A stretch of 64,000 nt of DNA from a virus (IMGVR_UViG_3300048629_000034:32001-96000); one strand, 5' to 3'. Shown: positions 36,061 through 55,975, counted from the first letter of the stretch. Program-made: numbers and translations. Notes: generated by a model not told the origin, from the letters alone.

Positions 36061-36828
36061 ATGAGAATTAAACAATTAGGGAATGGTGGAGGTTTAAATC
36101 CTCAACTGACAAACAGTAGCTTCTTAATAGAATATACATCAAATCAGTTTTTATTGTTTGATTGCGGATTCAATATTATGGATCGATTAATAAAATTAGA
36201 AGAAGACTCAGTTAAACACGATGCATCATTCAGAATATCTAAAATAGATATAGTTTTTGTTAGTCATACAGATGATGATCATATAGGTAACTTACAAACA
36301 TTGATCTACTGGAATTATTTTAAGAACCAAAAGAAGATGGAAATCATTTCACACAATGAAGTATTTGATATTATTGATAAAATGAATACTATTAAAACAG
36401 CAGGTATTGTTGAAGATTTTAAATACTTCATTAAAATAGATATTTCAAACAGAAAAGAAGTGTATTATAATCTTGTTTCTGACTCTATGCTTAAATTGAC
36501 GTTCATTAAGGCATACCACGGATCTAGAAAATGTTATGGATTACTTGCAATCAAAAGCAACAAAGCAATATATATATCAGGAGATACTGTAGCGCATCCT
36601 TCAATAGAGAATACAGTAACAAAAGAAATTAAGTTACAACAAAACATTTCCGGATCAAATCTAAACTCAATTATGTTTCATGATTATAGCCACTGGGATT
36701 GTCCAAGTAAAAATGTTCATGCTTGTAAAACAAACTTCGAGGAAGAATACAGTAAAGAATTTAGAGATAAATTAATCAAGTATCATACAGGTGAGGATGA
36801 CTTCAATAAAGACTGGAGAATACTATAA
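36061..36828 (+). CDS. MBL-fold metallo-phosphodiesterase (Apyc1/RNase Z-like)
   Basis: LGNGG, NSSFLI, LFDCG, SHTDDDHIG, HG, SGDT, FHD, VHA, terminal YH. Confidence 0.75.
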   Translation: MRIKQLGNGGGLNPQLTNSSFLIEYTSNQFLLFDCGFNIMDRLIKLEEDSVKHDASFRISKIDIVFVSHTDDDHIGNLQTLIYWNYFKNQKKMEIISHNEVFDIIDKMNTIKTAGIVEDFKYFIKIDISNRKEVYYNLVSDSMLKLTFIKAYHGSRKCYGLLAIKSNKAIYISGDTVAHPSIENTVTKEIKLQQNISGSNLNSIMFHDYSHWDCPSKNVHACKTNFEEEYSKEFRDKLIKYHTGEDDFNKDWRIL

Positions 36829-37103: not shown

Positions 37104-37598
37104 ATGGAAAAAACATTCACAGCACAAGAGGTGCAAGCTATAGCTACACAAGCAGTTGAAAATCACGTATCAAACGGAGGAAACGGTATCGTTTCTAAAG
37201 CATTAGATGGTGTAACAGCAACAGGAAGAGCAATCGCAGAGGAAACTCAAGCAAACGCTAAAAGAGAAGCTGGTAGAAGACTATACGATAACATTGAGGA
37301 GTTAATTAACAGCTATATTCTATCTAAAATGAATTTCATGCAAAGATGGTTAACTTCGGATAAAACTAAAAGAATGGCAGTATTAGTTGGTACATATACA
37401 GTTATTCACGCTATTAAATCTGGTGGTTTCGGATTAACTAATTATAGAATAAATCACGCTATGTTAGATTTATTATCATCTGAATGTAATGCAAGAATCA
37501 TGTCATCTGTACTAGGTGGATTTGACACAAATATTGCTAAAGCATTATTTACTAAACCTGAAGTTACTGAAGTAGTTTCAGAAGTAGCAGGAGCATAA
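37104..37598 (+). CDS. Hypothetical protein, first gene of the E1/JAB locus
   Basis: 164 aa; its stop is 2 nt before the peptide gene start. Confidence 0.65.
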   Translation: MEKTFTAQEVQAIATQAVENHVSNGGNGIVSKALDGVTATGRAIAEETQANAKREAGRRLYDNIEELINSYILSKMNFMQRWLTSDKTKRMAVLVGTYTVIHAIKSGGFGLTNYRINHAMLDLLSSECNARIMSSVLGGFDTNIAKALFTKPEVTEVVSEVAGA

Positions 37599-37600
37599 TT

Positions 37601-37735
37601 ATGGCAGCACAATCAGTATCAGATGCTGTAGCTGCTGCATTAGCGGCTGCAGGTACAACAACTACATCAGGAACTACTCCTACAGTGACAACTACGGACT
37701 CAGAAACTCTATCTGTATCTAGTAAAGGTCAATAA
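37601..37735 (+). CDS. 44-aa low-complexity peptide ending SSKGQ (candidate modifier)
   Basis: MAAQSVSDAVAAALAAAGTTTTSGTTPTVTTTDSETLSVSSKGQ; AGGAG RBS; A/T-ending codons like the highly expressed genes; below the ORF-track cutoff. Confidence 0.7.
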   Translation: MAAQSVSDAVAAALAAAGTTTTSGTTPTVTTTDSETLSVSSKGQ

Positions 37736-37820
37736 ACTAAATCATAGTATTTAGATAGATGGTTCTTAATATTCTGTTATTAGAACCATCTAGTGTGTAT
37801 ACTATACAAAGGAACCGATC

Positions 37821-38237
37821 ATGACAATAAACAAAGATTATATTTTAGACCTGCTTAATAATCCAGATAATGGAAACAGAGAGTACCAACTCATAGTATT
37901 CATTCTAAAAAGTGCTGACGAACTAGATAAACTTTATTCTAAACTATTTAGCTGTGTAAAAAGTTACGAAAGGCACAGAGCGGCAGACGTAGTATCATTC
38001 AAAAACTCATTAAAACAACATGCAAAAAATAAAGAAGACTTCTGCTTGTTTATAAGGTTAACTTCGAACAACACTAAATTAGGCTCAATATCTCATAGTG
38101 ACTTCGATTATTTCAATAATCTCTGTGACAAAATTGATGGATATGTATATTATCAGGACTTAAAAACATTAATAATAAGAGACATACCTCGACTTCTACA
38201 TGAACCAAATGCATTCATACTACATGATACTAACTAA
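37821..38237 (+). CDS. LHDTN-tail family protein 1
   Basis: Ends AFILHDTN-stop. Confidence 0.75.
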   Translation: MTINKDYILDLLNNPDNGNREYQLIVFILKSADELDKLYSKLFSCVKSYERHRAADVVSFKNSLKQHAKNKEDFCLFIRLTSNNTKLGSISHSDFDYFNNLCDKIDGYVYYQDLKTLIIRDIPRLLHEPNAFILHDTN

Positions 38238-38267
38238 CAAAACAATCTCAATAAAAAGGATAAACAA

Positions 38268-39272
38268 ATGACACAAGAAAACATAAACTTTAGCAAAAAC
38301 TATTTAGCAGAACAAATCAAATCACGATATGCTATGTTTCCACGAATTAGAGATGGTAAGTCTAATCTAATTATAGACTCTATAGCTCCACATTGGATAT
38401 ACAATAAATTAAAACAAGAGCATCTAGATGATAATGGTAGAGCAACTATAGGCGATAAAAAACCTAAAACAGCATATGCTATATCAGCATACTTTGCAGA
38501 TATCTTTAGAGTACCTAAAGTGCCACTAGCTGATCTACTTGACATACTTGGATATAAACCAAAAGAAATAAATTCTCTTCTATACAAAGTTGCAAAGAAG
38601 AAACATGATATTTGTTTAGTTGGATATGGTGGATCTGGACAAAACTTCACTTACTGGCTAACTGAAATGGCTGGATTACTTGGTAAACAGAATTTATTTG
38701 AATCATTAACTATATATGAGAAAGAACATGTTGAGTATTCAAACATCCTTAGATTTCCAAAAAATGTATTAAATCACAAAAATGGAACTACTCACAAACT
38801 TCATACAATGACAAATGAAGGAATATTGGCTAGAGCAACAAATTTAATTCCAGATTATATAGACCAAGAAGGCGTAGACAAATTATTAGAGGATAAACCA
38901 AACACTATATTCTATGGTGGTGGATCTATACCTACTATGGAAATGTTGTCTAACTACAATTTTGTATCTGCAACTCATGGAAACAATGACTGTACTTTAA
39001 TTGTTAAGCCAGTACAGGACAGTAGAATTCAAATCGAATCTTATGGAGTAATTATGCTATCTTCATTCTTTATGAACCAACTTAGAATGACTATAGGTTT
39101 TCTTGAGTTCTTGGCTCAGGATGATATTGATTGGACTCAAAGAGTATATCTTGACTATAACTTTACTACAGCAGAAACTAGAAGAGATAAGCACAAATAT
39201 AACTGGCAACTAGAACATAGTCAAACAATTGGACTAGAAGAAAATGACGAAGGAGACACTAATGTTAACTAA
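38268..39272 (+). CDS. Divergent ThiF/E1-like adenylating enzyme
   Basis: ICLVGYGGSG nucleotide loop, LTIYEKEHVEYSNILRF (equivalent to DxDxVExSNLxRQ), downstream Lys. Confidence 0.75.
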   Translation: MTQENINFSKNYLAEQIKSRYAMFPRIRDGKSNLIIDSIAPHWIYNKLKQEHLDDNGRATIGDKKPKTAYAISAYFADIFRVPKVPLADLLDILGYKPKEINSLLYKVAKKKHDICLVGYGGSGQNFTYWLTEMAGLLGKQNLFESLTIYEKEHVEYSNILRFPKNVLNHKNGTTHKLHTMTNEGILARATNLIPDYIDQEGVDKLLEDKPNTIFYGGGSIPTMEMLSNYNFVSATHGNNDCTLIVKPVQDSRIQIESYGVIMLSSFFMNQLRMTIGFLEFLAQDDIDWTQRVYLDYNFTTAETRRDKHKYNWQLEHSQTIGLEENDEGDTNVN

Positions 39273-40683
39273 TGACAAAAAATTAGAACAACTATTATTT
39301 GAAGAGGAAGCTGGTAATTTCTATGATATCTATTCTAAAGAGGAAAATGTAGGAGAAGATGATATAGACAAGAATCTTCATAATAATTGCGAGATAATAT
39401 TTACAACAAAGTATAACATACAGCAAACTCAAGACTTACTTACAGCAGGTAAATTTATTATGGATATAGATCCATTAATGGATAATTATAGCAATGAATA
39501 TTTTAGTGATATTACCTCGAAACTTGATGGAGACGATTTTTTAAATAATATTCTTAGGACCTCAGTTGAAATTGAAGGACAATATTCTTTTGCAGATGCA
39601 ATAAATATTATAGCAAATGTAAAAATACAAATGGGTGATGAGTTTTATGGTGCATTGTTAATAGAACCAAATAAACAATACACATTTAATCCTCTACATC
39701 ATTTAGTAGCGGTTGAGTATCTAAAGCACAGAGATGATAATGACACATTTAATGTATTTATATTTAGCAATTCTAATGTAGACAAATTTAATCTTGAAGA
39801 CAATGCTAAGGAAAGAGCAAAAAACAATATCATTAATCAATTGGGAATGTATGCAATCAGAGGAATTGTTAAAAGCAGAAGAATTATTGACGAGTCAAGA
39901 CAATCATTTATTGATAATGTACTTGAAAATGATAAACACGTGCTTAAAACAAAAATATCTTATTCTGCAGAGAGAAATGACAATGGAGACGAAATATATG
40001 TAGTGCCACAACAACTTCTAACGAGTGGCTTAGCAATACCGTATTATGGAACAACATTGTACAAAGTAACAACAAATTCATCAGGAGACAGAAGTTCGTA
40101 TGGTTCACACATTACACCAATGCTTGGAGTAAATACAGCATCTGGATGGTCAGGGAGAAAAGTAGATCATGCAAAAGATATTACTTTTGACTCTGTTTGT
40201 ACAGGAAACGAAGTTTCAACAACTATCAAAGGAATTTTAACGCATAATCATTCTAATCTTTCATCTCCATATTTTAGTAATTGTGTAATGGAAGGGTGGC
40301 ATGAATTATCGCAGGAGGCAATAAATACATCACTAATGATATATAAGGATCTTCTTAACAAGGATACATGTAACAAGCTTGGATTTGATTGTGATGAGGC
40401 TCATAAATTAAACACAAGCAGCGACAATACTGACAAAGCGGAAAATGAAAAGTTAATTGAATCATGGTCAAGCTGTCCATTTAATGACATATCATCTTCA
40501 GAGCCGTGTCCAGCACTGGTATCTTTAAAAGAATATACAGATTACTTGATTGGAGATTCACTATCTAATTTAACAGCTGGAGAAATATTACTTAGATACA
40601 GAGAAGCAAATAAATACCTATCTGGAATCGATACAGACTACACAACGCCAGATGGTGCTAAATGCGAACCATGTACAGAATAA
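39262..40683 (+). CDS. Putative prokaryotic E2-like protein
   Basis: HITPMLGVN...SVCTG...NLSSPY recalls the E2 HPN...xCxG...NxxSP layout; lies between E1 and JAB; start moved to MLTNDKK (AAGGAG RBS). Confidence 0.45.
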   Translation: MLTNDKKLEQLLFEEEAGNFYDIYSKEENVGEDDIDKNLHNNCEIIFTTKYNIQQTQDLLTAGKFIMDIDPLMDNYSNEYFSDITSKLDGDDFLNNILRTSVEIEGQYSFADAINIIANVKIQMGDEFYGALLIEPNKQYTFNPLHHLVAVEYLKHRDDNDTFNVFIFSNSNVDKFNLEDNAKERAKNNIINQLGMYAIRGIVKSRRIIDESRQSFIDNVLENDKHVLKTKISYSAERNDNGDEIYVVPQQLLTSGLAIPYYGTTLYKVTTNSSGDRSSYGSHITPMLGVNTASGWSGRKVDHAKDITFDSVCTGNEVSTTIKGILTHNHSNLSSPYFSNCVMEGWHELSQEAINTSLMIYKDLLNKDTCNKLGFDCDEAHKLNTSSDNTDKAENEKLIESWSSCPFNDISSSEPCPALVSLKEYTDYLIGDSLSNLTAGEILLRYREANKYLSGIDTDYTTPDGAKCEPCTE

Positions 40684-40699
40684 AAAAAAAGGAATACAA

Positions 40700-41929
40700 A
40701 TGAAAAAACAAACATATAGACAACCTAAGCCGCAAGCCCAATTTGACTATCTAACTAGACAATTTAAAACTAGACAAAAAGATTTAATTAAGGATAATAA
40801 ATCAACAAATAACTATGGTATATTATTATTGAACCAACAAAACCTGGACAACATCAGACATAAATCAGAGGTAAATATTACAACTCATGATGAATATGGA
40901 TTTCATTACAGAGCTTTAGTAGCTAGAGTTGTAACTGGATCGGGGAATACATCTGAGTTTCTTGACATTTGTATTCCAACTGTATATTATAATTACAAAC
41001 AAGAAGTGTCTGGAGGAGAAGTTGAATTTCATTTAGCGGATGTTGAAGCAGCGGCAAACGAAGTAAAACCTCTATCAGATATGATGGTTAACAAACTATT
41101 TGAATCTGACATTTCACTGGGGACTAGACTTAATAATCTATTTAATGAATTGAAGATAAAAGCAGAGTATTTCGATGTAGGGGTTAACTCTATTCATATG
41201 CATCCAGCAGGACTACATAGATTCTCTGGTGGAGACCTTGACACTGATCATACTAATCCTGGAATTTGTTTTCCTCTTAGTAAAGCAGAAAAAGAAACTA
41301 ATTTTGCATCTATTGTAACTAGACGAGGTAAAGGAGTTATTCTTGGACATACTGAATATAGAATTGCAGATGGCGATGTATCTACAAATGAACCAATCAA
41401 TTACTATCACGGTAAATCAATTACTTTAGTAAAAGGATATGCTCCAACAGACGATAGAACTACTATGCAAAAGTTACTTGGATTTAAAGTAGATGAACCA
41501 ATTAAATCATATACTGTATCTGACGGTTTAGACTTGTCTGACTTTGCAAACAAAGTAAATGAACTATTCAATGAGTCTGATTATGTTGCATTTGATGATA
41601 CTGTAATTTCAGATAATGTATCTAAATATGTATACAAACCAAAGCCAGTAGCAAAAAAGAAACCAGCAATTGCAGCTTCTAAGCAAAAAACTATTACAGC
41701 CAAACATGTAGAACTAAAGATAGTATATACAGATAAAACCACTGGAGATAAATATACTCAAGATGATATTGATGACATAATTGAAGAACTAATGTATTCG
41801 AGTACTGGAGTAAGCAAAGCAGAACTTATGCAACTAGAATACAAAGAGCTAGTAGATAGATATGAAGAATATATTATGAGACCAGGAAGCTACTCTTTTG
41901 GAGGATTTGGGTATGATTATGACTATTAA
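40700..41929 (+). CDS. JAB/JAMM metallopeptidase-like protein
   Basis: N-terminal Glu (HDEYG), QEVSGGEVEF, SIHMHP-x5-FSGGD; start moved to MKKQTY. Confidence 0.75.
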   Translation: MKKQTYRQPKPQAQFDYLTRQFKTRQKDLIKDNKSTNNYGILLLNQQNLDNIRHKSEVNITTHDEYGFHYRALVARVVTGSGNTSEFLDICIPTVYYNYKQEVSGGEVEFHLADVEAAANEVKPLSDMMVNKLFESDISLGTRLNNLFNELKIKAEYFDVGVNSIHMHPAGLHRFSGGDLDTDHTNPGICFPLSKAEKETNFASIVTRRGKGVILGHTEYRIADGDVSTNEPINYYHGKSITLVKGYAPTDDRTTMQKLLGFKVDEPIKSYTVSDGLDLSDFANKVNELFNESDYVAFDDTVISDNVSKYVYKPKPVAKKKPAIAASKQKTITAKHVELKIVYTDKTTGDKYTQDDIDDIIEELMYSSTGVSKAELMQLEYKELVDRYEEYIMRPGSYSFGGFGYDYDY

Positions 41930-41946
41930 AAACAAAGGAAACCACA

Positions 41947-42813
41947 ATGGAAATTAAATTCGACGATTATGTATCAGCAGCAGAGCATTTGCCAGAGAAA
42001 GCAGATAACACTTTCTTTATCAGTCCATCTGCATTTTATGATTTTATAGATAAAAAGCATCTTTGGTTCAGACAACAATTTATGAAGGAAGATCAATTTG
42101 AAGGTAATACTGGATCCAATCTTGGTAACATAATTCACAAAGCATGTGAAATGTACACACAAGAAGTAGATGTAACTGATGAGCAAATTAATGAGTATAT
42201 TGATTCATTACCAGATAATGATGAGATAGACAAACAAACAATCAGAGATAACTACAGATCAATGATTGATACTGTATTGACTAGATTTTTAATGGATACG
42301 AATATTGATGAGACAGAACAATTTATTGGCTATGATTTATCTGAACATGTAACTGTGGGTGGAACTTTCGATTACACTAGAACAGATAGATCTGGCAGAC
42401 AAATTATTGGCGATTACAAGACTACAGCAAGTAAGTTACCTCCAAAGAAAATCGAACAGAAACATAAAATGCAAGCATTAATATATGCATATATTATGGA
42501 TAAATCAGATCTATACATGCGACCAGATATGTTAGAGATTGTATATATCACAAGGCATCATGATCCAGTTATCAGCGAGAAAACAGGCAAGCCAGGCAAA
42601 GAATATTTTCCAGATGTATCTGTACTTCAATATGAAATTACAGATAATGATATGGCATATATTGATTCATTAATGAGATTATGCGCGGAAACTATGCATT
42701 TCTTCTTTGACAATCCAGATAAAGCATATATCATATTTACTGACTACAGACTAAAGGGTGAATTTTTCGAAACATATAAATATACTGAAGAACAGGAACA
42801 ACCACTGTTCTAG
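41947..42813 (+). CDS. PD-(D/E)XK exonuclease (RecB/Cas4-like)
   Basis: SPSA, GNIIH, E...GTFD, GDYKT, QxxxY. Confidence 0.85.
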   Translation: MEIKFDDYVSAAEHLPEKADNTFFISPSAFYDFIDKKHLWFRQQFMKEDQFEGNTGSNLGNIIHKACEMYTQEVDVTDEQINEYIDSLPDNDEIDKQTIRDNYRSMIDTVLTRFLMDTNIDETEQFIGYDLSEHVTVGGTFDYTRTDRSGRQIIGDYKTTASKLPPKKIEQKHKMQALIYAYIMDKSDLYMRPDMLEIVYITRHHDPVISEKTGKPGKEYFPDVSVLQYEITDNDMAYIDSLMRLCAETMHFFFDNPDKAYIIFTDYRLKGEFFETYKYTEEQEQPLF

Positions 42814-42826
42814 AAAGGAGAGCAAA

Positions 42827-43317
42827 ATGTATTCAGATGATACAATAAATGGAATGACTTATGAAGAGTATTATAGAGCATCTGTAAACGAAGGGTTAAT
42901 TGAGTCTGGTTATATTTTAATCAATAAACAAAGCAAATATATACATCCAATATCATTCAAATTTATGAATAAATATTATTCGTCTAACCACAAAAGAGTT
43001 GATAAGTATTCATACAAGAATGAATATTGGATAAAACATACACAGCAGTCAGATCTGTATAAAATATATATGATTTTAACTAATAAAGTACACAGGATAA
43101 TTTAATTATGATTTCAAATTTAACACATAAGTTTCTAGATATAACAAACATGTGGATGATATATGGTTTCTATGGTAAATTCACTCGAACAACTTCACAT
43201 ACCTGGTTCTATCAGGAATACGAACAATTAGGTGGACTATACTCTAATACAACAATAACCCCAAAATCAACACTACATTGGTGGAAATTATGGCTACTAG
43301 GAGACAGTAATGACTAA
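42827..43317 (+). other. Two small hypothetical ORFs (about 42827-43105 and 43108-43317)
   Basis: Co-oriented; the first probably starts at MYSDD (AGGAG RBS). Confidence 0.45.
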
Positions 43318-44002
43318 TGAAATACCAGCACATATATTGGTTAAAGACCCATTGTATATATATTATTACTTACAAGAACCAAAAGACTCTAATAATGTAT
43401 TCGAGAGAACAGCAGAGTTAGTATCTGATGAAAAAAGTCACAATACTATAGCAACAATCAGATGCTCAACGATTAAGAGAAGTGTTTTAAATAATAATAC
43501 AATTATACGTGGATCATATGACAGTTATATAGACACTTACGATAACTCTATTCATAAAGTATCACTTATCTCATCTAAAACATTAGCAATTGAATCTAAA
43601 GATAATTCAAGCACACATCTAGAGTTAGCTATTGTAAATTGGTTATTGCAAGATGATTCATACAAACTTCAGTTAGATGCAATAGTAAAAGACGCAAGTT
43701 ATTATAATCCGGATGCTGGACCATCAGAGCAAACTGTATATTTTGAACCAATACCTGATATAGAGCAATATATTACTAATAAATTAAACAAAGTTCAGGC
43801 ATACATTGATAATCCGAATACTATAGAAGAATGTAAAGATCTTAGATGGTATAAGAATAAGCAGGGAATTACGAAGAAAGTTGCATGTGAATTATGCCAA
43901 TACAATTCTGTATGTAAATTTTACAATAAATCTAAATCAATCAGCAACAGAAAAGCTAAATCAAATATAGCAAACAGACTAAAGAATTTGAAGAATCTAT
44001 AA
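43310..44002 (+). CDS. Degenerate Cas4-like protein with C-terminal Cys cluster
   Basis: IRGSYD but no DxK; C-terminal EC...W...ACELCQYNSVC. Confidence 0.45.
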   Translation: MTNEIPAHILVKDPLYIYYYLQEPKDSNNVFERTAELVSDEKSHNTIATIRCSTIKRSVLNNNTIIRGSYDSYIDTYDNSIHKVSLISSKTLAIESKDNSSTHLELAIVNWLLQDDSYKLQLDAIVKDASYYNPDAGPSEQTVYFEPIPDIEQYITNKLNKVQAYIDNPNTIEECKDLRWYKNKQGITKKVACELCQYNSVCKFYNKSKSISNRKAKSNIANRLKNLKNL

Positions 44003-44091
44003 CTGGTTCTTCAAATTCAATACATATAAAAGAAATTTACTATATTTTTTATATGTATTGAACAACCAGATAAGCAAATAATGAATAGGAG

Positions 44092-44484
44092 ATGAGTATA
44101 AAAAGACAAAATAACAAAACATTTATTTGTGAGATAGGGATGGAACTAAATAGACTTCCAAGGAATGGATATTTACTTATGCAAGCTTCCAATAATAATG
44201 AATGGCTACAACTTACTAGCACTTTACGTGAAAATCATAAATATTTAGGCGTGCCACTGTCTAAAGAAATGCTAAATTTATTTGAGGACACAAGAAATAA
44301 AGACTTTTTTATGTTATGTATTCAAAAAAATCAACACCACGAATTAAAGTTATCATTAGTATCTAAACTTTACGTAAACAGTTTAAGTTTTAAAAAAATG
44401 AATTATATATATAAGATATTTGACATTTCTACATTCTTTAAAAAAACAACAACAAATCAATTCATACTACACGACACTAATTAA
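44092..44484 (+). CDS. LHDTN-tail family protein 2
   Basis: Ends NQFILHDTN-stop. Confidence 0.75.
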   Translation: MSIKRQNNKTFICEIGMELNRLPRNGYLLMQASNNNEWLQLTSTLRENHKYLGVPLSKEMLNLFEDTRNKDFFMLCIQKNQHHELKLSLVSKLYVNSLSFKKMNYIYKIFDISTFFKKTTTNQFILHDTN

Positions 44485-44503
44485 TTAATATAAAGGAGAA
44501 TGA

Positions 44504-44845
44504 ATGCTAAGAAAAATATCAGAATGCAAAATACTAAGCGAACTTGAAAAAGTAATTGACAACAACAGAAGAGTTGTAATACTAGCTGATAATAAAGAAG
44601 AGTGGGATGATATTTTACGGTTTATATTTTCTCAACAAAAGTATGAATTAACAGCATCAACTTCTAAATTAGACACTTGGTTGCCATATTATGTAAAGTA
44701 TAAAAGAGACGCAATAGTAATCACAAGGTTAAACGACACATTGAGACTTACTCACACAGAGCGTATATATGCCAAAGAAAGCTCTGATATTATAATAAGC
44801 ATAAACAGAAGAGATAACCAATTCATACTGCACGACACAAATTAA
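44504..44845 (+). CDS. LHDTN-tail family protein 3
   Basis: Ends NQFILHDTN-stop. Confidence 0.75.
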   Translation: MLRKISECKILSELEKVIDNNRRVVILADNKEEWDDILRFIFSQQKYELTASTSKLDTWLPYYVKYKRDAIVITRLNDTLRLTHTERIYAKESSDIIISINRRDNQFILHDTN

Positions 44846-44854
44846 GGACATTAT

Positions 44855-45191
44855 ATGCTAGACAAATCATCGCAATATAAAATATTAAATGAGCTAAAGC
44901 AAGTTATAAATGACGACGAAATAGTAATCATATATACAAGGAGCAAAGAAGAAATGGGAAGAAGCCATAAAATTTATATATTCTCAGCAAAAATATAGTT
45001 TTTATAAAACGGGTTCACTATTAGAATGGATAAGTTATTATAATGTAAAAAGTAGTTTTTGTATATTCTTGTACAGAAAAAACGAAAAACAATTCTATAT
45101 AAAACATGGAGTCCTTAAGTATAAAACGAAATATAATACGATAATTAAAGTAAACAAAAACAGTAATTTTATCTTACATGACACAAACTAA
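44855..45191 (+). pseudogene. LHDTN-tail family member 4, frameshifted
   Basis: MLDKSSQYKILNELKQVI...KEE, one extra A at about 44953, then WEEAIKFIYSQQKY...NFILHDTN-stop; 337 nt; close paralog of 44504-44845. Confidence 0.75.
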
Positions 45192-45224
45192 AAAATAATA
45201 CATATAAAAGAGGAGATTGATTAA

Positions 45225-45542
45225 ATGAAAACAAAAATTACGAAAAATATATTAACAAAACAAGAATTATTTGAAGAAGTAGAGAATAGATACAACTATC
45301 ATAATGAGAAGCCTGCAAAATGTACTGATACAACAAATAATGTTGCATGCAAGTCTAAAAAACTATACCTTCATTATCTAGAAAAATACGATAAAAACAA
45401 AGATTCAAATTTATTCGATTATTTCAAATGGTTGAGAACACAACGAGCAGAAGTATTTAATCTACCTAAAACTACAATCAAAAGAAGGACAAGAATATGG
45501 GAAGTGAATGCAAAGACAACACTGAACTATCTAGACCATTAA
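45225..45542 (+). CDS. Hypothetical basic protein
   Basis: 105 aa, GAGGAG RBS. Confidence 0.55.
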   Translation: MKTKITKNILTKQELFEEVENRYNYHNEKPAKCTDTTNNVACKSKKLYLHYLEKYDKNKDSNLFDYFKWLRTQRAEVFNLPKTTIKRRTRIWEVNAKTTLNYLDH

Positions 45543-45559
45543 CAAAATAAAGGAACCAA

Positions 45560-46804
45560 ATGACATACAACAGTAAGCAGATACAAGCAATAAATATGGC
45601 ATCAAGCCTAAAACATAAGGTGTGCTACATATCAGGAGCTCCAGGAACTGGTAAATCTACATGCCTTAAACAAATCATTGAGAACATAGGAGCTAATGGT
45701 TCTGAAATAGTTGTAATGGCTCCGTCTCACAAAGCTAAACAAGTAATTGAAAAAACAATAGACGATAAGTCACTTGAGTATATGACAGTGCAGAAATATT
45801 GTGGACTTAAACCAAAAATAAATAGTAAAACAGGAATCCAGACTTTTGTAGAAGAGTTTAATCCGAAGGAACAGACATGCGATGTTGCAGTAGTAGATGA
45901 AGCTAGCATGTTGACGCAGAAAATGCTAGACAAAGTTATGAGAACAAGCAATCATGTAATTCTATTAGGAGACATTCATCAGCTTGAAGCAATAGAGGAT
46001 CCAATACCTGAACAAACTTTGTCAGATATACCAGTAATAGAATTAACTGAGCAGATGAGACAGAAATCAATCCATTCTGATCTGTATAAAGTTATTCAGA
46101 TTTTTCTTAAGCGTAAGAATAACAATACAACTCGTACATTTAATTTTGATACTGAGTCTGATGGATCTATCATTGTGCACAAAGATCTAAGCGATTTTAT
46201 AGATACATTTATTGAATCTAAATCTACAAGCAAGAGAATCATTGGATTCAGAAATGTATCAATTGACTATATTAATTCTGAAATTAGATCAAAACTATCA
46301 CTACCTGATTATCCAATAGTTGGAGATATTATAGTACTTCAGCAACCTATAACTAGACGAGGGAAGAAGAATAATAGAGTAGTTAAGGAGATTGTGTATA
46401 ACAATGGGGATGAATTAACAATCAAGAAAATCACACCAGTCGATAATAACACTGACTATCCAACATTCATGATGGCAGAATGTATCAGACACGGAGATAT
46501 GGAAACTAGAGAAATCAAAATACCATATGACTCAATCAAGTTTAATAACAATCTGCAGAAATTAGCAAATTCAATCAACAATGGAACAAACAAGAGATTA
46601 TGGACAGAGAAATATTATCCATTGAAAGAATCTGTAGCCCACTACAAATTCAACTACTGTGGAACTACACACAAAGCTCAAGGAAGTACTTATGACGAAG
46701 TATATATCTTGCATAAGGACATGATTGTAGCCGGAGATAATTATAACAGACTTATGTATGTTGCAATTTCGAGAGCTAAGACTGTAGCACATATAAAGGA
46801 TTAA
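45560..46804 (+). CDS. Dda/RecD-like SF1B DNA helicase
   Basis: GAPGTGKS, APSHKA, VDEASM, GDIHQL, LTEQMRQ, TTHKAQGST, YVAISRA. Confidence 0.92.
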   Translation: MTYNSKQIQAINMASSLKHKVCYISGAPGTGKSTCLKQIIENIGANGSEIVVMAPSHKAKQVIEKTIDDKSLEYMTVQKYCGLKPKINSKTGIQTFVEEFNPKEQTCDVAVVDEASMLTQKMLDKVMRTSNHVILLGDIHQLEAIEDPIPEQTLSDIPVIELTEQMRQKSIHSDLYKVIQIFLKRKNNNTTRTFNFDTESDGSIIVHKDLSDFIDTFIESKSTSKRIIGFRNVSIDYINSEIRSKLSLPDYPIVGDIIVLQQPITRRGKKNNRVVKEIVYNNGDELTIKKITPVDNNTDYPTFMMAECIRHGDMETREIKIPYDSIKFNNNLQKLANSINNGTNKRLWTEKYYPLKESVAHYKFNYCGTTHKAQGSTYDEVYILHKDMIVAGDNYNRLMYVAISRAKTVAHIKD

Positions 46805-46806
46805 TT

Positions 46807-47211
46807 ATGGATAAGCTTCTATTGCATAACCAAAACTGGAACAACATAGAAAAACTAGCAGTAAAAGAAAACGACAAATTAATAATATTCATAAATATAA
46901 ATAATTTAAATACATTTAATACAATAACGGATCTATTCGGAAGACAAATAGGATCGATGGATGATATGCGTTATTATTTTACTGAAGATAAACAATACGT
47001 ATCTTTGTATTTACACAAAGATCGCAATGGAGATCCCTCTCAAGGATGGACAGGTACTAAAGAGATAGATCTACATGCGGATATTATAAAGGTATTAAAC
47101 AATGAGTTCTATTCAAACATTTATCCAGCAGCCATAAAATGCATTATTGACGCTAGGCATATATCAAATATAAATACAGACCAGAGGATAATTTTACATG
47201 ACACAAATTAA
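46807..47211 (+). CDS. LHDTN-tail family protein 5
   Basis: Ends RIILHDTN-stop. Confidence 0.75.
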   Translation: MDKLLLHNQNWNNIEKLAVKENDKLIIFININNLNTFNTITDLFGRQIGSMDDMRYYFTEDKQYVSLYLHKDRNGDPSQGWTGTKEIDLHADIIKVLNNEFYSNIYPAAIKCIIDARHISNINTDQRIILHDTN

Positions 47212-47572
47212 CGAAAAAGCATTAGCTAATTTTCTTAAATATCAAGCAGATGGAGACAACATAGACAAAGATGTAATTATTGTTGAATCTATTGATGAAT
47301 GGAATAAGATATTTGAATGTCTATATAAATATAAAATATACGGACAGAGATCTGGTCTGTCGTTAAAAGAATGGGAAAGTGTATATAGAAGATGCAATAA
47401 TAATAATGGGGATTATGCGCTAAGGTTAGCTAGTGAAATAAACCTAAATCATTCAAGTTCTGATTGGATGATAGCGAACTACATTGAAGACACAAACGGC
47501 AAAGCAATACATTTCAAGGATATACCTGGAGTACACAGATTGAATCAATTTATTCTGTACGATACAAATTAA
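47198..47572 (+). CDS. LHDTN-tail family protein 6
   Basis: Ends NQFILYDTN-stop; its ATG lies inside the previous gene's HDTN codons. Confidence 0.75.
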   Translation: MTQINEKALANFLKYQADGDNIDKDVIIVESIDEWNKIFECLYKYKIYGQRSGLSLKEWESVYRRCNNNNGDYALRLASEINLNHSSSDWMIANYIEDTNGKAIHFKDIPGVHRLNQFILYDTN

Positions 47573-47591
47573 TACACAAGGAGGCGCTATA

Positions 47592-47987
47592 GTGAAAGAT
47601 ATTAATTCAATAAATAATATTGACGAACAACAATTAAGTGGCTTAATGAAAGAATTAAAGTCAAACACCAATAATAGCTTTGATGCTCTATTTATATATA
47701 ATATTAAAGATTCAGATAGTTTTCATGATATTATGAAGTTGTGGGGAAGAGGAGACATTTGTGGAAAAGATCACATTGGATATCCTCGGGCATTAAGTCT
47801 CGAACAGGATGGAACACAAGGATGGGAAGAACAATTTAAATATAGCATTACTACGAATGATCAGATATTACGTCAAGCTGAAGTTTTTTATATTAAATGG
47901 AAAAAAATGTATTCGCTAGACTACAATACGCTATTAGATGGCAAAAATAATAATCTAAATCAATTTACATTATACGATACAAACTAA
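47592..47987 (+). CDS. LHDTN-tail family protein 7
   Basis: Ends NQFTLYDTN-stop. Confidence 0.75.
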   Translation: MKDINSINNIDEQQLSGLMKELKSNTNNSFDALFIYNIKDSDSFHDIMKLWGRGDICGKDHIGYPRALSLEQDGTQGWEEQFKYSITTNDQILRQAEVFYIKWKKMYSLDYNTLLDGKNNNLNQFTLYDTN

Positions 47988-48011
47988 TCAACACACAGAA
48001 GGAGAACCAAT

Positions 48012-49823
48012 ATGACACAAGAATATAAACTCAGAGATTATCAACAGGAAGCTGTAGACGAAATAGACGCTGGATTTTCATTTGGAGAAGATGAAATCAT
48101 ACTTGAAGCATGTACATCATTCGGCAAAACAAGTGTAATATGTGAACTAGCTAGAGTACATAAGAAGTCAGTTACTATTCTTGTGTCATTAACTCCATTA
48201 GTCCAACAAATAAGCAATACACTAACACTTATGGGAGTTGATCATTCAATCATTAAAGCAGGTCGTGATAGTGAATTTGATCCAAATGCACGAGTGCATC
48301 TTGCTATGGCTCAAACATTGCATTCACGAATCAAAGCAGATAAGATGGAATTTACAACTAATTTGCTTATTCAGGATGAATATCATATATCTTATAATAC
48401 CAAGCGTACAGATGAAATCAAGCAGGTACTTAAACCTAATAAGATATTGGGTCTAACTGCAACTCCATACGATGCTAGAGGATACAGATTATCTAATACA
48501 GCAGAGATTGTGGCTACAGCACACGAGAAGGATCTTGAGTCTCAGGGTTTCCTAGCTCCAGTCAAATACTATATACCAGAATGGTCTGAAAAAGTAGATT
48601 ATGATAGAGTAAAGAAGAACGGTGGTGATTATACTGGTACAGCATTGAATGAAATTGTAAATACAGAGACTCATATAGAACAAGTAATTCAGTCAATGAA
48701 TAAACTTAATGCACAAAACAAGAAAACTATTGTATTTTGTTCTACAATTGAGCAGTGTGATTATATTACAAATAGATTAAAACAGCATGGATATTTAGCT
48801 GAATCATTTCATAGTAAAATTGGTAAGCAAAACTCAGAACTAATGCTTGATGTATTTACAAATAATGCTGATAATTATATTGAAACAGGACCAAAGAAAA
48901 AACTATCTGAGCTTGAATCTGGTTCTTTATTTGACGACAAACCAGTCAAACCTCAGCCTAGAGCAGTCAAATGTTTAGTATCGGTGAGTAGACTAACAAC
49001 GGGCTTCTCTGTTGAAGACATACAACTTGGAGTAGCAGTCTCTAAAACTTTAGTTAGATCTAAATTTGTACAAATGGCTGGCAGATTGCGTAGAATACAT
49101 CCAGATAAGCAATTTGGTGAATTTCTTGATTGCGCTCAACTTATATCTACACATGGATTTCCTGATGAAATATATGTTCCTCCACCTAGAATTGGAATAT
49201 CATTAGCAGATAAGAAGGCATTAGCTGATGCAACTAAGAGTATACCTGATATCAGAATTGTATGCGATGACGAATTATCAGAACCAATTACATTAGATAA
49301 ATATAATCTTCGTTTGGTTGAATTAAAGAACACAAAGAAACGTCTAACTCAAATGGATGTTCCTGAGCTTAGAGATAAACTATTAGTTGAATCTGATTTG
49401 CTAACTACATTCTCTATTATTACTGTATTATTTGATAAAGTATTATGTGAGCCTATGCCTGACAAATGGGGAAACGACTCAAGGGGTTATGTAGCTTCAA
49501 ATGGTAAAACAGTTGTTGGCTTCGTTAATCCCCGTACAATCGAATGGATAGCGTCTAAATGGATGGAAGCATACGAAACTCTACCACAGTATTTTAAAGA
49601 TAAATATCTTAGAGCACTTAAGACTAGATCTATTAATGCAATCAAACAGAATAAATCTATATATTCTCTTGGATTCTTTATTGAATTTCTTATGGAGCAA
49701 GACTCATTTGACCTTGAGATTGAAGATAGTACGACTAAAGAAGAACCAAATATATATGATAATGATCATACTGACAATGCAGATGATTATGAAATTGATG
49801 AGGATGGAGATATTCCATTCTAA
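48012..49823 (+). CDS. SF2 DExH helicase with acidic DIPF tail
   Basis: LRDYQ, TSFGKT, DEYH, GLTATP, QMAGRLRR; ends DEDGDIPF. Confidence 0.9.
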   Translation: MTQEYKLRDYQQEAVDEIDAGFSFGEDEIILEACTSFGKTSVICELARVHKKSVTILVSLTPLVQQISNTLTLMGVDHSIIKAGRDSEFDPNARVHLAMAQTLHSRIKADKMEFTTNLLIQDEYHISYNTKRTDEIKQVLKPNKILGLTATPYDARGYRLSNTAEIVATAHEKDLESQGFLAPVKYYIPEWSEKVDYDRVKKNGGDYTGTALNEIVNTETHIEQVIQSMNKLNAQNKKTIVFCSTIEQCDYITNRLKQHGYLAESFHSKIGKQNSELMLDVFTNNADNYIETGPKKKLSELESGSLFDDKPVKPQPRAVKCLVSVSRLTTGFSVEDIQLGVAVSKTLVRSKFVQMAGRLRRIHPDKQFGEFLDCAQLISTHGFPDEIYVPPPRIGISLADKKALADATKSIPDIRIVCDDELSEPITLDKYNLRLVELKNTKKRLTQMDVPELRDKLLVESDLLTTFSIITVLFDKVLCEPMPDKWGNDSRGYVASNGKTVVGFVNPRTIEWIASKWMEAYETLPQYFKDKYLRALKTRSINAIKQNKSIYSLGFFIEFLMEQDSFDLEIEDSTTKEEPNIYDNDHTDNADDYEIDEDGDIPF

Positions 49824-49838
49824 TATAAAGGAAATACT

Positions 49839-50297
49839 ATGAGAGAAATAAATTTTTTATTACAAATAAACGACATGGATCCATCAGGACAAATAAGAAG
49901 AATCTCTAGAGAAATAGAATGTGATAATTACGACAAAATGTCAGTACCAAGATATGTTGATTTCTTCAAAAACGAAATAAAAAAAGCATTAAATATTAAA
50001 CTAGCTCCAAAGTTATTTAGTGACAAAACACATCGTAAGTTCACTATAAAGACAAAAGATCTATTTATAAACCATGCTAATATATCAAGAGATCCATATG
50101 CCATGAACAATGAAATATGGGCAGCAATGACTTTATTTATAGAAGATGATAGAGATAACCCTCATATCGATAGTTTAAATTATTACAAATCACATAATAG
50201 TGATGATGCAGTTCAATTGTTGTATAAAGCAATAGCAAGAAACACAGATACTACAGAAACTATTACAGATAGGATAATTTTACATGACACAAACTAG
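49839..50297 (+). CDS. LHDTN-tail family protein 8
   Basis: Ends RIILHDTN-stop. Confidence 0.75.
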   Translation: MREINFLLQINDMDPSGQIRRISREIECDNYDKMSVPRYVDFFKNEIKKALNIKLAPKLFSDKTHRKFTIKTKDLFINHANISRDPYAMNNEIWAAMTLFIEDDRDNPHIDSLNYYKSHNSDDAVQLLYKAIARNTDTTETITDRIILHDTN

Positions 50298-50655
50298 AAT
50301 TATAGACACTAATAAACTAATAAATTACATAAATAATAAAGCAAGCAATAAGCATGAGTGCATAATCAAAGTAAATTCTAATGATCACTGGATCAGATTA
50401 ATTTTCTCAATATTTGATAATGGTAGTGATATTGGTTTATCACATAGAAATTCTAGTAGAAACCTATGGGCCACTTACTTTAGTAAAGAATCTCATACAA
50501 ATAATTGCATATATTTATTTATTGACAAAAGTAAGTGGCTTTCGTATTCAGAAGAAGGTTTCATAAATGAGCACAATTTAAACGATCATGTAGTTGATTT
50601 TAAATACTTTCTAGTTGAAGACAAACCTAACTTCAAATTACATGATACAAACTAA
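50284..50655 (+). CDS. LHDTN-tail family protein 9
   Basis: Ends NFKLHDTN-stop; ATG inside the previous gene's HDTN codons. Confidence 0.75.
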   Translation: MTQTRIIDTNKLINYINNKASNKHECIIKVNSNDHWIRLIFSIFDNGSDIGLSHRNSSRNLWATYFSKESHTNNCIYLFIDKSKWLSYSEEGFINEHNLNDHVVDFKYFLVEDKPNFKLHDTN

Positions 50656-50666
50656 AAGGATACAAC

Positions 50667-51041
50667 ATGACAGAAAGAGAAATTCTACTTAAATTCGTAA
50701 AGAATGAACTAAAGAAGAATATATCAGATAGAAAAGTAATTATTTGCGAATCATTCATTGAATATTCAAACTTTCTTCATTGGACGGATGCACATAAAGT
50801 AATAACAAATATAAATGACTCAAGAAATGATATGGATGAATGGATAGCGGAATTTGAATTCTACAAAGACACAGGAAAGATAGTAATCTTTTTAGAACTA
50901 AATGACTCTATAGCTATAGACAGTATGAAGTATTTAGAAATGTGCGACCAATACGATGACAGAAGGACAATATATTCTGAAATAATTTCATCATGCAACA
51001 AGGAAAACAAAGATATGTTTATATTACACGACACAAATTAA
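50667..51041 (+). CDS. LHDTN-tail family protein 10
   Basis: Ends MFILHDTN-stop. Confidence 0.75.
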   Translation: MTEREILLKFVKNELKKNISDRKVIICESFIEYSNFLHWTDAHKVITNINDSRNDMDEWIAEFEFYKDTGKIVIFLELNDSIAIDSMKYLEMCDQYDDRRTIYSEIISSCNKENKDMFILHDTN

Positions 51042-51050
51042 GGAGAACCA

Positions 51051-52095
51051 ATGACAACATACAAACAATTAGAAAAACAATGTCAATCTATAGCAAATGA
51101 CTTATCAAATGGTATAGAAGTGACAGAAGATAATGTAGATTACTATCCAGATCTATCTATTGGAGATAATGTCTCTGGACATGATTATTTATCACATGAT
51201 ACACAAGATGATTGGACATATACAATAAGTAGATCAGGGGACTATAGATCAGGAGAAGTAGCAATGGCTTTAGGTGGTCCAAGTATATGGATAAATACAA
51301 ATACAAGAACCGTAGAAGGCTATTGGGGCTCAGATAGAGTAACTATACCATATATTGATAATATTGGCTTAGATGATGCTCTATGTGAGTTTTACGAATG
51401 CGGAATAGGAATGAATCTAAATAAGTAACAAATGATAGACAAAAAAAGGAGAACAATATGGGACGATATTACAGGGACACGATAAATGACGAATTTTCAG
51501 GTAAATTTTATTTTGGAACACAAGATAGTGATGCAGCAGATAGATTTGGAACAACAGCTAATGAACCACAATTCATATATTATTATTATGGCGAAGACGA
51601 CTTAGAAGAGGTACAAGGTGAGTTAAACAATATAGAAGAGTATCTATTGAATGAAATTGGTTCGGAACTATTTGTCAAATACAATATAGCTTCACTAAGA
51701 GGAACCAAGACAGAAACACACATAGATAAGAGATTTAATAATATGTGGGATTTTATGAATAATGATATCGACAAATGTGAGCATATAGATAAAAACAAAT
51801 TTATTTCTGAATTTGCTGATTTTGAACTAGGAGCTAAAATCGAATATGCAATATTAACAAATGGAGAATGTGAACTGGAGTGTGAGTTGTAATGGGAAAT
51901 ATATTAATCACAAACAAAACAGACACACACTTGCTATCTGACAATACAGATCATATTGATATTCATTTAGATGAAGGCAAATATGTAAATATCGTAACAG
52001 CAAACAAGAAATACATTGTTATGGTAGAGAATGGTTCTATATCAGTATATGACGAATCTGATACATTTTTGAATGGAATTGAACTAGGAGAATAA
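51051..52095 (+). other. Three hypothetical ORFs (51051-51428, 51458-51892, 51892-52095)
   Basis: RBS-bearing ORFs; GGPSIWINT and MGRYY...GKFYFGTQDSDAADRFG look like conserved phage hypothetical proteins. Confidence 0.6.
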
Positions 52096-52097
52096 CT

Positions 52098-53045
52098 ATG
52101 TTGCAAACAGCAAATGATGCACCAAACTTTACAATAGTGTTGCCAGTTGATTGTCAGGCAGATTGTGTATTTTGCTCATGGAGAACTAGCAATCAGGACA
52201 AACAGAAAATGGACGATGATAAATTTTTCAAAGCAATTATTCATACATTGAATAATTTGCCATCTAATTGTACAGAATTAACAATTAGTGGGGGAGAACC
52301 AACAACATATCCATATTTAGAGCAAGTATTAAAACTAATACAACTACATAAGAAAGAGAACATTAAAAAAGTAGTATTTACTACAAATGGACAGAATCTA
52401 TATTCCTGGGCTAAGGACAGTCTATTTTTAGATGTAGTGGATTATGTAAACATAAGCAGACATCACTATATCCAAGAAGACAACGACAGAATAATGAGAA
52501 TACGAACTATAAATTGGAATACTATATGTTCAGTATCGGATAGATTATCTAAAGCTGGAATTAGAACCAATATCAATTGTATATTAAGTACATCTGTAAT
52601 GAAAGAATACGATTATGAATTTTTAGCTTGTTTCATAGATTATGCTAGAAATCATAGTATTAATTCTATAACATTTAGAAAAGATTATGATGATGGATTC
52701 GGAATGCATTATCTGGAACAGGAAATACAAGAAACATATAAACCATTGCATATTGGAGAATGCCCTGTATGTAGAAAATCTAAATACCTTATTAATGGTA
52801 TGGAAGTATTATTTACTACATCAGAATTTGAACCAACAGCATACTATGGATCACAATCTATATATGAATTTATACTTCAACCTAACGGAAATCTAACATC
52901 AGATTGGGAAGGAAATAGTACAGTTGAGCTAGATACGAAACCTAAACTTAAACAATGTACTGATAATACTTCTAATCTGAATCTAACTTCTAGAGGATAT
53001 TTAGCAGGCTCTGGTAGAGGATGTGGAAGCAGTGGATGTAGATAA
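52098..53045 (+). CDS. Radical SAM enzyme
   Basis: CQADCVFC, ISGGEPT, TTNG, NISRHHY; Gly/Cys tail. Confidence 0.9.
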   Translation: MLQTANDAPNFTIVLPVDCQADCVFCSWRTSNQDKQKMDDDKFFKAIIHTLNNLPSNCTELTISGGEPTTYPYLEQVLKLIQLHKKENIKKVVFTTNGQNLYSWAKDSLFLDVVDYVNISRHHYIQEDNDRIMRIRTINWNTICSVSDRLSKAGIRTNINCILSTSVMKEYDYEFLACFIDYARNHSINSITFRKDYDDGFGMHYLEQEIQETYKPLHIGECPVCRKSKYLINGMEVLFTTSEFEPTAYYGSQSIYEFILQPNGNLTSDWEGNSTVELDTKPKLKQCTDNTSNLNLTSRGYLAGSGRGCGSSGCR

Positions 53046-53072
53046 ACATATAATAGCATTAGGAGAATAATT

Positions 53073-53411
53073 ATGCCATTCAAACACGAATCTATGCATA
53101 TACCAGCTAAACACGATAAGAGGGTTAAACTATCTGATCAGGATAAGGCAGATATCAAGCGTTTATACTTTAGTGACGACAATCTGAGCCAAAGAGATTT
53201 AGCAAGAATGTATAATGTATCTCGCAGATCTATTATATTTGCTATATATCCTGAGCGTAGAATTGCTAATTATCAAGCTCGTGTAGCTAGAGGTGGAAGC
53301 AAACAGTACTATGACAAGGATAAGCATACGGAAGCTATGAGAACTCATAGGAAACATAAACAGGAATTATACCTTGACGGTAAATTAATTGAACAAACTA
53401 TAGGAGAATAA
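53073..53411 (+). CDS. HTH protein
   Basis: KLSDQDKADIK...LSQRDLARMYNVSRRSI. Confidence 0.7.
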   Translation: MPFKHESMHIPAKHDKRVKLSDQDKADIKRLYFSDDNLSQRDLARMYNVSRRSIIFAIYPERRIANYQARVARGGSKQYYDKDKHTEAMRTHRKHKQELYLDGKLIEQTIGE

Positions 53412-53412
53412 A

Positions 53413-54237
53413 ATGGGCTGCTGGAACGGGACTTGCGGAATAAGTCAGATGAGTATAAATGCAGGTGATCCTGTAAAAGTAATTATGATACAAAATCAGA
53501 TATATGTAGGAGAGGCTGCAGGGTATTGTTATCCAACAGGAAATGCATTGCCTATCTCATTCGCTTTTGATGCTGTATATGATGACTATGGATCATTTGA
53601 AGACATGAATAATGGATTAGGATTCAAATTATTTGAAGAATATTTCAATCATCAATTAAATGTCAGAGATGGTATCAGAATAACAGCAGATGCATTTGGT
53701 GACAAGCATCTCGGAATACCTGAACATGACCATAGTAATCTTACTTCAAAGCAAATTATTGGACTTATCGAACGAGATAGAGTTCTAACTAAAGATGCAT
53801 ATGGAGATAAAGATGGTGTACTTATGGGATTTATGTTTATACATAAAGATATATATGACAGTGTAATTAGAACCAATCAACACATACACGACATGTGCAG
53901 TAAAGAGTTAACAGAACGAAGCACAAGCTGGAGATATGAATACAACGGTCACTCTGTGTTTAATAGTATGAGTAATGTAAATACCCATGCATTTGAATAT
54001 TATTTTGAATTATACTCACAGAACCAAGATCAATATGATCTATCAGAATTTGCTGAGTTGATGTCTGAATTTGTATCTATTACCAAAGCTATGGATATGC
54101 TTCGTAAATCATGGGGTGGACAATCTGGTAAAGGCAGTCAATCTTGTGATTTTGAATATACTAAACGATTAATCGATGGTATGCAAAGACTAATCAAACG
54201 ATATGAAGATGAATATAATCACATTAATGAAGAGTAA
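53413..54237 (+). CDS. Conserved phage hypothetical protein
   Basis: MGCWNGTCGISQMSI...YDDYG; 274 aa. Confidence 0.6.
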   Translation: MGCWNGTCGISQMSINAGDPVKVIMIQNQIYVGEAAGYCYPTGNALPISFAFDAVYDDYGSFEDMNNGLGFKLFEEYFNHQLNVRDGIRITADAFGDKHLGIPEHDHSNLTSKQIIGLIERDRVLTKDAYGDKDGVLMGFMFIHKDIYDSVIRTNQHIHDMCSKELTERSTSWRYEYNGHSVFNSMSNVNTHAFEYYFELYSQNQDQYDLSEFAELMSEFVSITKAMDMLRKSWGGQSGKGSQSCDFEYTKRLIDGMQRLIKRYEDEYNHINEE

Positions 54238-54309
54238 TTTTATTTGCTTATGTATTGGAGGCACCATACCGTAGTTGATACGATATGTTTCATATTGTAT
54301 CATTAGAGC

Positions 54310-54339
54310 TTGACAAAGTGTAACCGTTTACGATACAAT
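54310..54339 (+). promoter_or_regulatory. Sigma70-type promoter with overlapping GATAC[A/G]ATATG repeats
   Basis: TTGACA-N18-TACAAT; inverted pair at about 54274-54302 and a third copy over the -10 box. Confidence 0.6.
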
Positions 54340-54376
54340 ATGATTGAAGTAAATAAACAATCAAAGGACTATCTAT

Positions 54377-54898: not shown

Positions 54899-55125
54899 CA
54901 AAAGCAACCCAGCTCCTGAATTATATTTCCAAGCACGACGGGCTACGAAATGGAGTCTGAAACTTTCCCAACGAGGAGCGTAGCGACGGTAGTTGGTTGG
55001 GAAAGTTCTAAGCGAAATGAAGTCAGTCCGTATGTGCATATGGATTGGTAAATAAATTTGAATCTGAATATATAAAAAGAAAATACAGTCCAATGAATAT
55101 ATTGGTTCTAGCAAAGGAGAATTAA

Positions 55126-55938: not shown

Positions 55939-55975
55939 TCTTATGTAGACAAAACAACACAAAAAAGGAATTAAT

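Follow-up and report, generated by a model that had tools for sequence, protein, structure and literature searches.

The tail of bacterial SSB (...DDDIPF) and the acidic tails of the T7 proteins gp2.5 and gp4 are C-terminal docking tails of the replisome, and the C-terminal peptide of SspB binds ClpX. The Bil system consists of BilA, a ubiquitin-like protein (Ubl), the E2 BilB, the JAB protein BilC and the E1 BilD; to our knowledge, the known Bil systems are bacterial defences and not phage genes. The ThiF-like enzymes of the MccB family adenylate the terminal Asn of MccA peptides of 7-56 amino acids (aa), which are encoded just upstream (PMC4010828). Here we describe ten small genes, located between positions 37821 and 51041 of a 64,000-nucleotide (nt) stretch of viral DNA (hereafter the window; bases 32001-96000 of the 113,115-bp genome IMGVR_UViG_3300048629_000034), whose highly diverged products all end with the same C-terminal heptapeptide. 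Our preferred reading, to which we give an even chance, is that they constitute a lineage-specific accessory family with a C-terminal short linear docking motif for a single common receptor.

On this reading, the heptapeptide resembles the SSB and T7 tails in being a short, free docking peptide at the extreme C terminus and in its replication-gene context. The logic, however, is inverted, as one hub tail serves many partners there whereas many bodies carry one tail here, and the tails are acidic and end in Phe there, whereas they are hydrophobic-then-polar and end in Asn here. SspB likewise joins a variable or independent body, by way of a flexible linker, to a short peptide at the C terminus, which tethers the protein to a constant machine, but there is no sequence resemblance, and no protease or unfoldase was identified in the window phage. 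A literature search returned nothing relevant on a described phage family with a constant tail.

The tail consensus in the window phage is [F/I]-x-L-[H/Y]-D-T-N-COOH, of which L-x-D-T-N is the invariant part. A six-frame scan of the window for L[HY]DTN gave exactly ten occurrences, every one of which is on the + strand and abuts a stop codon, and no 11th copy was present anywhere in the whole viral genome. In 100 dinucleotide-preserving shuffles, the back-translated pattern occurred 0.02 times on average, compared with 10 matches in the real sequence. The original prediction, made from the window sequence, had listed ten open reading frames (ORFs) of about 110-150 aa with a common C-terminal tag, one of them frameshifted; the scan reproduced all ten ends (38237, 44484, 44845, 45191, 47211, 47572, 47987, 50297, 50655 and 51041), the nine intact ORFs encode 113-152 aa, and the copy ending at 45191 (m4) is indeed split by a frameshift. 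A Shine-Dalgarno-like site is located upstream of all ten genes. The members are listed below; the profile scores are those of leave-one-out profiles made after removal of the last 10 residues and ranked among 62 proteins of the same genome.

37821 to 38237, + strand: m1, 138 aa, tail AFILHDTN; flanked by the 44-aa micro-ORF and the E1-like gene; profile 14.7 bits, rank 1 of 62
44092 to 44484, + strand: m2, 130 aa, tail QFILHDTN; first of the triplet m2-m4; weak profile of 6.1 bits, rank 1, with 5 of 200 shuffles as good
44504 to 44845, + strand: m3, 113 aa, tail QFILHDTN; the member with a structure model
44855 to 45191, + strand: m4, frameshifted copy, tail NFILHDTN; closest to m3
46807 to 47211, + strand: m5, 134 aa, tail RIILHDTN; last codons contain the ribosome-binding site (RBS) and start codon of m6
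47198 to 47572, + strand: m6, 124 aa, tail QFILYDTN; 14-nt overlap with m5; profile 21.1 bits, rank 1
47592 to 47987, + strand: m7, 131 aa, GTG start, tail QFTLYDTN; body missed by the profile
49839 to 50297, + strand: m8, 152 aa, tail RIILHDTN, TAG stop; last codons contain the RBS and start codon of m9
50284 to 50655, + strand: m9, 123 aa, tail NFKLHDTN; 14-nt overlap with m8; profile 16.0 bits, rank 1
50667 to 51041, + strand: m10, 124 aa, tail MFILHDTN; profile 7.6 bits, rank 1, with 1 of 200 shuffles as good

When m4 was read through its frameshift, it was 35% identical to m3 (E 1.6e-15), and the two are the sole clearly similar pair. The frameshift lies inside GAAGAAATGG (window 44948-44957), where the run at 44952-44954 has one A too many for the E-E-W reading of m3; m4 could be a pseudogene or could reflect a homopolymer sequencing error.

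A homologue of the E1-like protein, 63% identical, led to a sister phage, whose metagenomic contig of 113,848 bp occurs in other samples as well, including a hydrothermal-vent metagenome. The sister phage is syntenic with the window phage, and the core genes of the two are 34-69% identical. It contains at least six small genes (73-111 aa) with the tail F-x-L-x-Q-T-N directly before the stop codon (FKLAQTN, FELAQTN, FELTQTN, FILEQTN, FVLAQTN and FILQQTN). The core common to both phages is therefore [F/I]-x-L-x-[D|Q]-T-N-COOH, and L, T and N do not vary, either among the 14 aligned intact members or among the 16 tails that were read directly. At position -3, all 10 tails of the window phage have D and all 6 of the sister phage have Q, and position -4, which is H or Y in the window phage, is variable in the sister; in these two genomes, the tail is uniform within each and different between them. 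No window member has an orthologue in the sister phage detectable by BLAST, and no insertion slot is common to both. With 10 and at least 6 paralogs, divergence faster than that of the core genes and differing slots, the genes make up a lineage-specific multigene family; within each genome the tail stays the same, and the bodies diverge more quickly than any core gene. One founder gene per phage may have given rise to independent expansions; alternatively, several body types may be older than the split of the phages, with the tails having changed in parallel.

Selection on the tail acts at the peptide level, because its codons vary synonymously (Leu, CTA/CTG/TTA; His, CAT/CAC; Asp, GAT/GAC; Thr, ACT/ACA; Asn, AAT/AAC; stop, TAA/TAG), because direct DNA repeats among the members (67-83% identity) are limited to the tail codons, and because the sequences 3' of the stop differ among the copies and are unrelated. 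The frequencies of the tail codons roughly track genome codon usage. The claim that the peptide and not a DNA site is conserved was thus borne out with two qualifiers. One is a somewhat over-used Thr codon, ACA, found in 8 of 10 window tails and in all five sister tails read at the DNA level, compared with 46% genome-wide. The other is that the tail codons of m5 and m8, which encode the variant R-I-I-L-H-D-T-N, contain the RBS (AGGA) and the ATG of the following gene. Since the 26-nt junction is 96% identical between m5/m6 and m8/m9, these pairs represent one duplicated, translationally coupled two-gene unit. Both qualifiers, with Thr being ACA in 13 of the 15 tails read at the DNA level overall, would fit a reading in which conservation acts on the nucleic acid, the tail codons serving as a junction at which genes are gained and lost by recombination, or as an element for translational coupling, and the peptide being a by-product; the CAA ACA AAT TAA common to the five sister tails read at the DNA level and the different slots occupied by members in the two phages would also fit. 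We nevertheless regard such a junction as extremely unlikely, as the Leu, His, Asp and Asn codons vary in line with genome usage, the start-codon overlap is found in 2 of 10 tails, the post-stop sequences are unrelated, and the motif is always in frame and terminal.

The bodies, in contrast to the tail, showed no significant BLAST similarity to one another except for m3 and m4, and the family alignment contained no invariant body column and no conserved stretch of seven columns. The tail-less profiles placed m1, m3, m4, m6, m9 and m10, and more weakly m2, first among the proteins of the same genome, while the bodies of m5, m7 and m8 were not recovered. Of the faint body pattern expected for all members, a mutual likeness of seven of the ten bodies thus stood, m2 being weak, and its extension to the other three did not. 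Because the isoelectric point (pI) of the bodies spans 4.8 to 9.5, the members have no shared property besides the tail; this range also ruled out a uniform acidic DNA mimic. Immediately before the tail, polar residues prevail, with many Asn, Lys and Thr.

The sole usable structure model, an AlphaFold2 model of m3 with moderate quality, was computed from a nine-sequence alignment (predicted local distance difference test, pLDDT, 74; predicted template modelling score 0.68). It has a compact alpha/beta body at residues 7-99 (pLDDT about 70-87) with the topology alpha-beta-alpha ... beta-hairpin-alpha-beta, and the last 11 residues, with tail residues 103-111 among them, are unstructured (pLDDT < 50). 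A search of the PDB for the fold with this model gave no convincing match (Foldseek, best E 0.095; VIA, best Z 5.0, under the stated noise level), and neither a beta-grasp nor a Ubl was among the structural matches of this single moderate model. The look-alikes of m3 in the ESM Atlas and BFVD were exclusively small uncharacterised phage proteins (template modelling (TM) score 0.57-0.70), which are 86-101 aa long, align with residues 6-101 only and have no tail; the ESM Atlas look-alikes of m6 were uninformative. In the model, therefore, the tail of m3 appears as a free appendage on a compact body. The earlier idea of a constant tail on variable bodies is reinforced by this free tail and by the uniform F-x-L-x-Q-T-N of the six sister members.

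The tail might instead be an integral element of its own protein or of assemblies of the family, folding back as a strand or ligand-binding element or inserting into a neighbouring member to form homo- or hetero-oligomers. The tandem triplets and the two translationally coupled pairs (m5/m6 and m8/m9) fit such a co-assembly, and a low pLDDT from a shallow alignment is no proof of disorder. However, a groove receiving the tail should be conserved too, yet the tail is the sole conserved element and no body column is invariant; moreover, the body look-alikes manage without a tail. We consider this possibility unlikely.

The docking reading is founded on what is observed: a motif selected at the peptide level, bodies that have diverged, a parallel tail in the sister phage and genes that occupy no fixed slots. 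The family would comprise small accessory proteins that diverge rapidly and are encoded in the early/replication block of an N4-like phage. Each would have a compact body that leads through a short, polar linker into a free heptapeptide at the C terminus, which would serve as a short linear docking motif. Because the conserved residues alternate (F, L, D/Q and N, plus T), the tail may bind as an extended strand that buries one face and the terminal carboxylate in a receptor groove. The uniformity of the tail within a phage and its difference between phages suggest one common receptor, either a host or a phage protein, and the variable bodies would supply different specificities or activities.

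The same uniformity within and difference between phages, as if tuned to a host factor, could also be expected of a degron, read by a host or phage protease so that all members would have the same short lifetime or a timed removal, and a free hydrophobic-then-polar peptide at the end of bodies that are otherwise unrelated would suit this role. The tail is, however, unlike known bacterial C-terminal degrons such as the ssrA-type LAA, and no protease gene was found among the phage genes, so that a degron seems distinctly improbable.

Several points weigh against docking to a common receptor. The disorder of the tail is read from the one moderate m3 model with its nine-sequence alignment, and the model of m5 reached a pLDDT of only 48. 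No clamp, protease or PDZ-like receptor was found among the annotated phage genes. The similarity of bodies across the two phages is only suggestive: cross-phage body profiles were mostly non-significant, and the match of the group A profile to the sister member s5, first of 78 with 7.0 bits, was equalled by 4 of 200 shuffles. Finally, the D/Q difference, known from two genomes, could reflect inheritance from the founder gene of each phage instead of co-evolution with a receptor.

If the tail is a docking tag, it would be a compact, transferable peptide handle that joins many small proteins of one phage lineage to a single machine, and a pull-down with the tail peptide would be a direct route to that machine. 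Selection holds the seven terminal residues while the protein body drifts beyond recognition. The reach of these considerations is that of two uncultured phages carrying the tail family, with its function inferred.

The first member, m1, is located within a five-gene module (window 37104-41929) that encodes a 164-aa protein, a micro-ORF of about 44 aa, a BilD_N/ThiF-like E1, a 479-aa protein and a JAMM protease. The E1-like family conserves GxGGxG followed by ExDxVExSNxLR, the ThiF/E1 signature, and sub-threshold ThiF matches were found in four of nine E1-like homologues. The Atlas look-alikes of the E1-like protein have BilD_N and ThiF domains (TM 0.50-0.57 over residues 27/97-318, scores < 0.9), and its profile had no match to the sequences of solved E1, ThiF or MccB proteins. 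The family of the 425-aa JAB-like protein conserves the JAMM signature (E81, H182-x-H184-P, S192 and D195), and the 479-aa family has one invariant Cys and no canonical UBC motif. Judged by these signatures, the module looks like a phage-borne, Bil-like conjugation system, with a counterpart for the E1, an invariant-Cys protein and a JAMM protease. Further copies are present in four contigs and 31 metagenomic loci (about 35 in all, 30-48% identity), where a 160-270-aa protein and a micro-ORF of 40-45 aa are each time accompanied by the E1-like gene and a pair of roughly 450-aa proteins.

The original prediction suggested a tie of the tails to these E1/E2/JAB genes, and in this form the tail would dock the proteins onto the adjacent E1/Cys-protein/JAB module as swappable substrate receptors or substrates; in a variant, the E1-like enzyme would adenylate the C-terminal Asn as MccB does on MccA. 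For this speak the position of m1 directly 5' of the E1-like gene, the sister members s1-s3 and s4, which flank the module, the E1-like signature with the sub-threshold ThiF matches and the BilD_N/ThiF look-alikes, the conserved JAMM residues and, for the variant, the habit of MccB-family enzymes of acting on a terminal Asn of peptides encoded just upstream (PMC4010828), all 16 tails ending in Asn. The co-occurrence proposed as a check went the other way. An unbiased scan of ORF C termini within about 10 kb around the module in the roughly 35 loci detected no recurrent tail with the sister phage as the sole exception, so that module and tails are found together only in the window phage and its sister, and the proposed tie was not supported. 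Furthermore, there is nothing between the micro-ORF and the E1 gene of the sister phage, which is the slot of m1 in the window phage; nine of the ten window members are 2-9 kb from the module, among helicases, and s6 is about 13 kb beyond it (contig coordinates). The enzyme looks BilD-like rather than MccB-like, its profile matched none of the solved E1, ThiF or MccB proteins, and the members of 113-152 aa differ from the 7-56-aa MccA peptides and have no C-terminal Gly. Docking onto the module consequently appears rather improbable. Still less probable, in our estimate, is its more specific form, in which the tail would be a recruitment peptide by which fast-evolving receptor proteins deliver different host proteins to the phage's Bil-like E1/Cys-protein/JAB machinery; if so, a bacteriophage would encode a targeting system like a ubiquitin ligase, with adaptors that can be swapped.

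Two further candidates from this comparison were considered. No Gly is present in the last seven residues of any of the 16 tails, all of which end in T-N; because the tails end in Asn and not in Gly, the proteins are not Ubl modifiers, and a modifier of a Bil-type system is also contradicted by the lack of co-occurrence across about 35 contigs. The likeness to Bil systems lies in the module, whereas the tail proteins have no terminal Gly, no beta-grasp is seen in the moderate m3 model, and the module is widespread without them. Against substrates of the MccA type speak the length of the members (73-152 aa) and the fact that m1 alone, 1 of 16 and no sister member, is directly upstream of the E1-like gene; for m1, an Asn-ending protein upstream of a ThiF/E1-like enzyme gene is the likeness, while the proteins here are folded and the enzyme looks BilD-like. 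As a side observation, the JAB-like protein of the sister phage (L025 12477-13664) has the tail-like end ...DFISTN, which is probably a coincidence because no other JAB-like orthologue ends in this way.

The lack of a described family for the motif, noted originally, agrees with our searches, in which no Pfam, PHROG or large-database relatives were found outside the sister phage. Pfam gave no match reaching the cut-off for the nine intact members, and PHROGs none that was significant (best E 0.0036). With m3 as the query, a word-indexed search across 5.8 billion proteins returned m3 itself only, and an exhaustive profile search of 1.84 billion representatives returned the nine window proteins only, missing those of the sister phage; a combined 14-sequence profile found members of the window phage and the sister phage only. 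None of the cultured phages matched a 15-kb query in Megablast, and the Dda-like helicase, used as a query for related loci, had no close relatives. A scan of IMG/VR for TTACAYGAYACAAAYTAR gave 16 matches, all out of frame with ORFs of 5-21 aa, and the 119 single matches obtained with the sister-type tail DNA belong to unrelated proteins. No curated family and no solved fold matches the tail family. IMG/VR also contained very large phage proteins (942-1786 aa) that end in ...EVLELLQQTN (L039, L053, L087, L100, L123, L126 and L138); this family is probably unrelated to the tail family, and its proteins were picked up because the DNA pattern enforces L-x-Q-T-N.

The genome of the window phage is N4-like, as two large ORFs match the virion RNA polymerase (vRNAP) family (E 4.9e-65 and 3.5e-121). 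The members are encoded in a + strand early/replication block together with a PD-(D/E)XK nuclease, a Dda-like superfamily 1 (SF1) helicase, a superfamily 2 (SF2) helicase, a primase, an N4-type SSB, a resolvase and a ribonucleotide reductase, and most of them are located among the helicase and nuclease genes. The giant vRNAP, which N4-like phages package and inject, raises the thought that the tail could be a capsid packaging signal loading the proteins for co-injection, by analogy with the C-terminal cargo-loading peptides of HK97-fold encapsulins. Yet all members are in the early/replication block and not in the structural block, and the vRNAP itself has no tail; we see hardly any likelihood in a packaging signal. 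A beta-clamp-binding motif (QL[SD]LF type) was rejected as well, as Gln precedes the tail in only 4 of 10 members, the invariant part is L-x-D-T-N and no clamp gene was found in the phage.

The two vRNAP-matching ORFs are outside the window, at opposite ends of the linear contig (genome 2035-10314, - strand, 2759 aa, L183; 107887-112914, - strand, 1675 aa, L184), and they cover different parts of the profile, which suggests a split or permuted vRNAP. Two neighbours of the tail genes have acidic ends of their own: the SF2 helicase (window 48012-49823) ends in ...DEDGDIPF and the PD-(D/E)XK nuclease (41947-42813) in ...EQEQPLF. Both resemble the C-terminal docking peptide of bacterial SSB, and the sister orthologues end in ...DDDMDLSNCPF and ...ESTPLI, respectively. 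Many genes start in the RBS-spacer context GGAGAACCAATG, for example at window 47988-48011 and 51042-51050; promoter and terminator scans gave results at or below chance level.

In addition, window 36061-36828 encodes a metallo-beta-lactamase-fold protein, a candidate cyclic-nucleotide-degrading anti-defence enzyme because its 44%-identical sister orthologue has a precomputed Pfam match to PF23023 (Anti-Pycsar Apyc1). The SF2 helicase and the primase are separated by about 10 kb of accessory genes (window 51051-60900), among them those for a radical SAM enzyme (52098-53045), a helix-turn-helix protein and a GIY-YIG nuclease, and the counterpart in the sister phage is three genes in about 2.5 kb. 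In a more distant relative of the phage group, a reverse transcriptase (RVT_1; L029 17688-18437) is located just downstream of the SF2 helicase.

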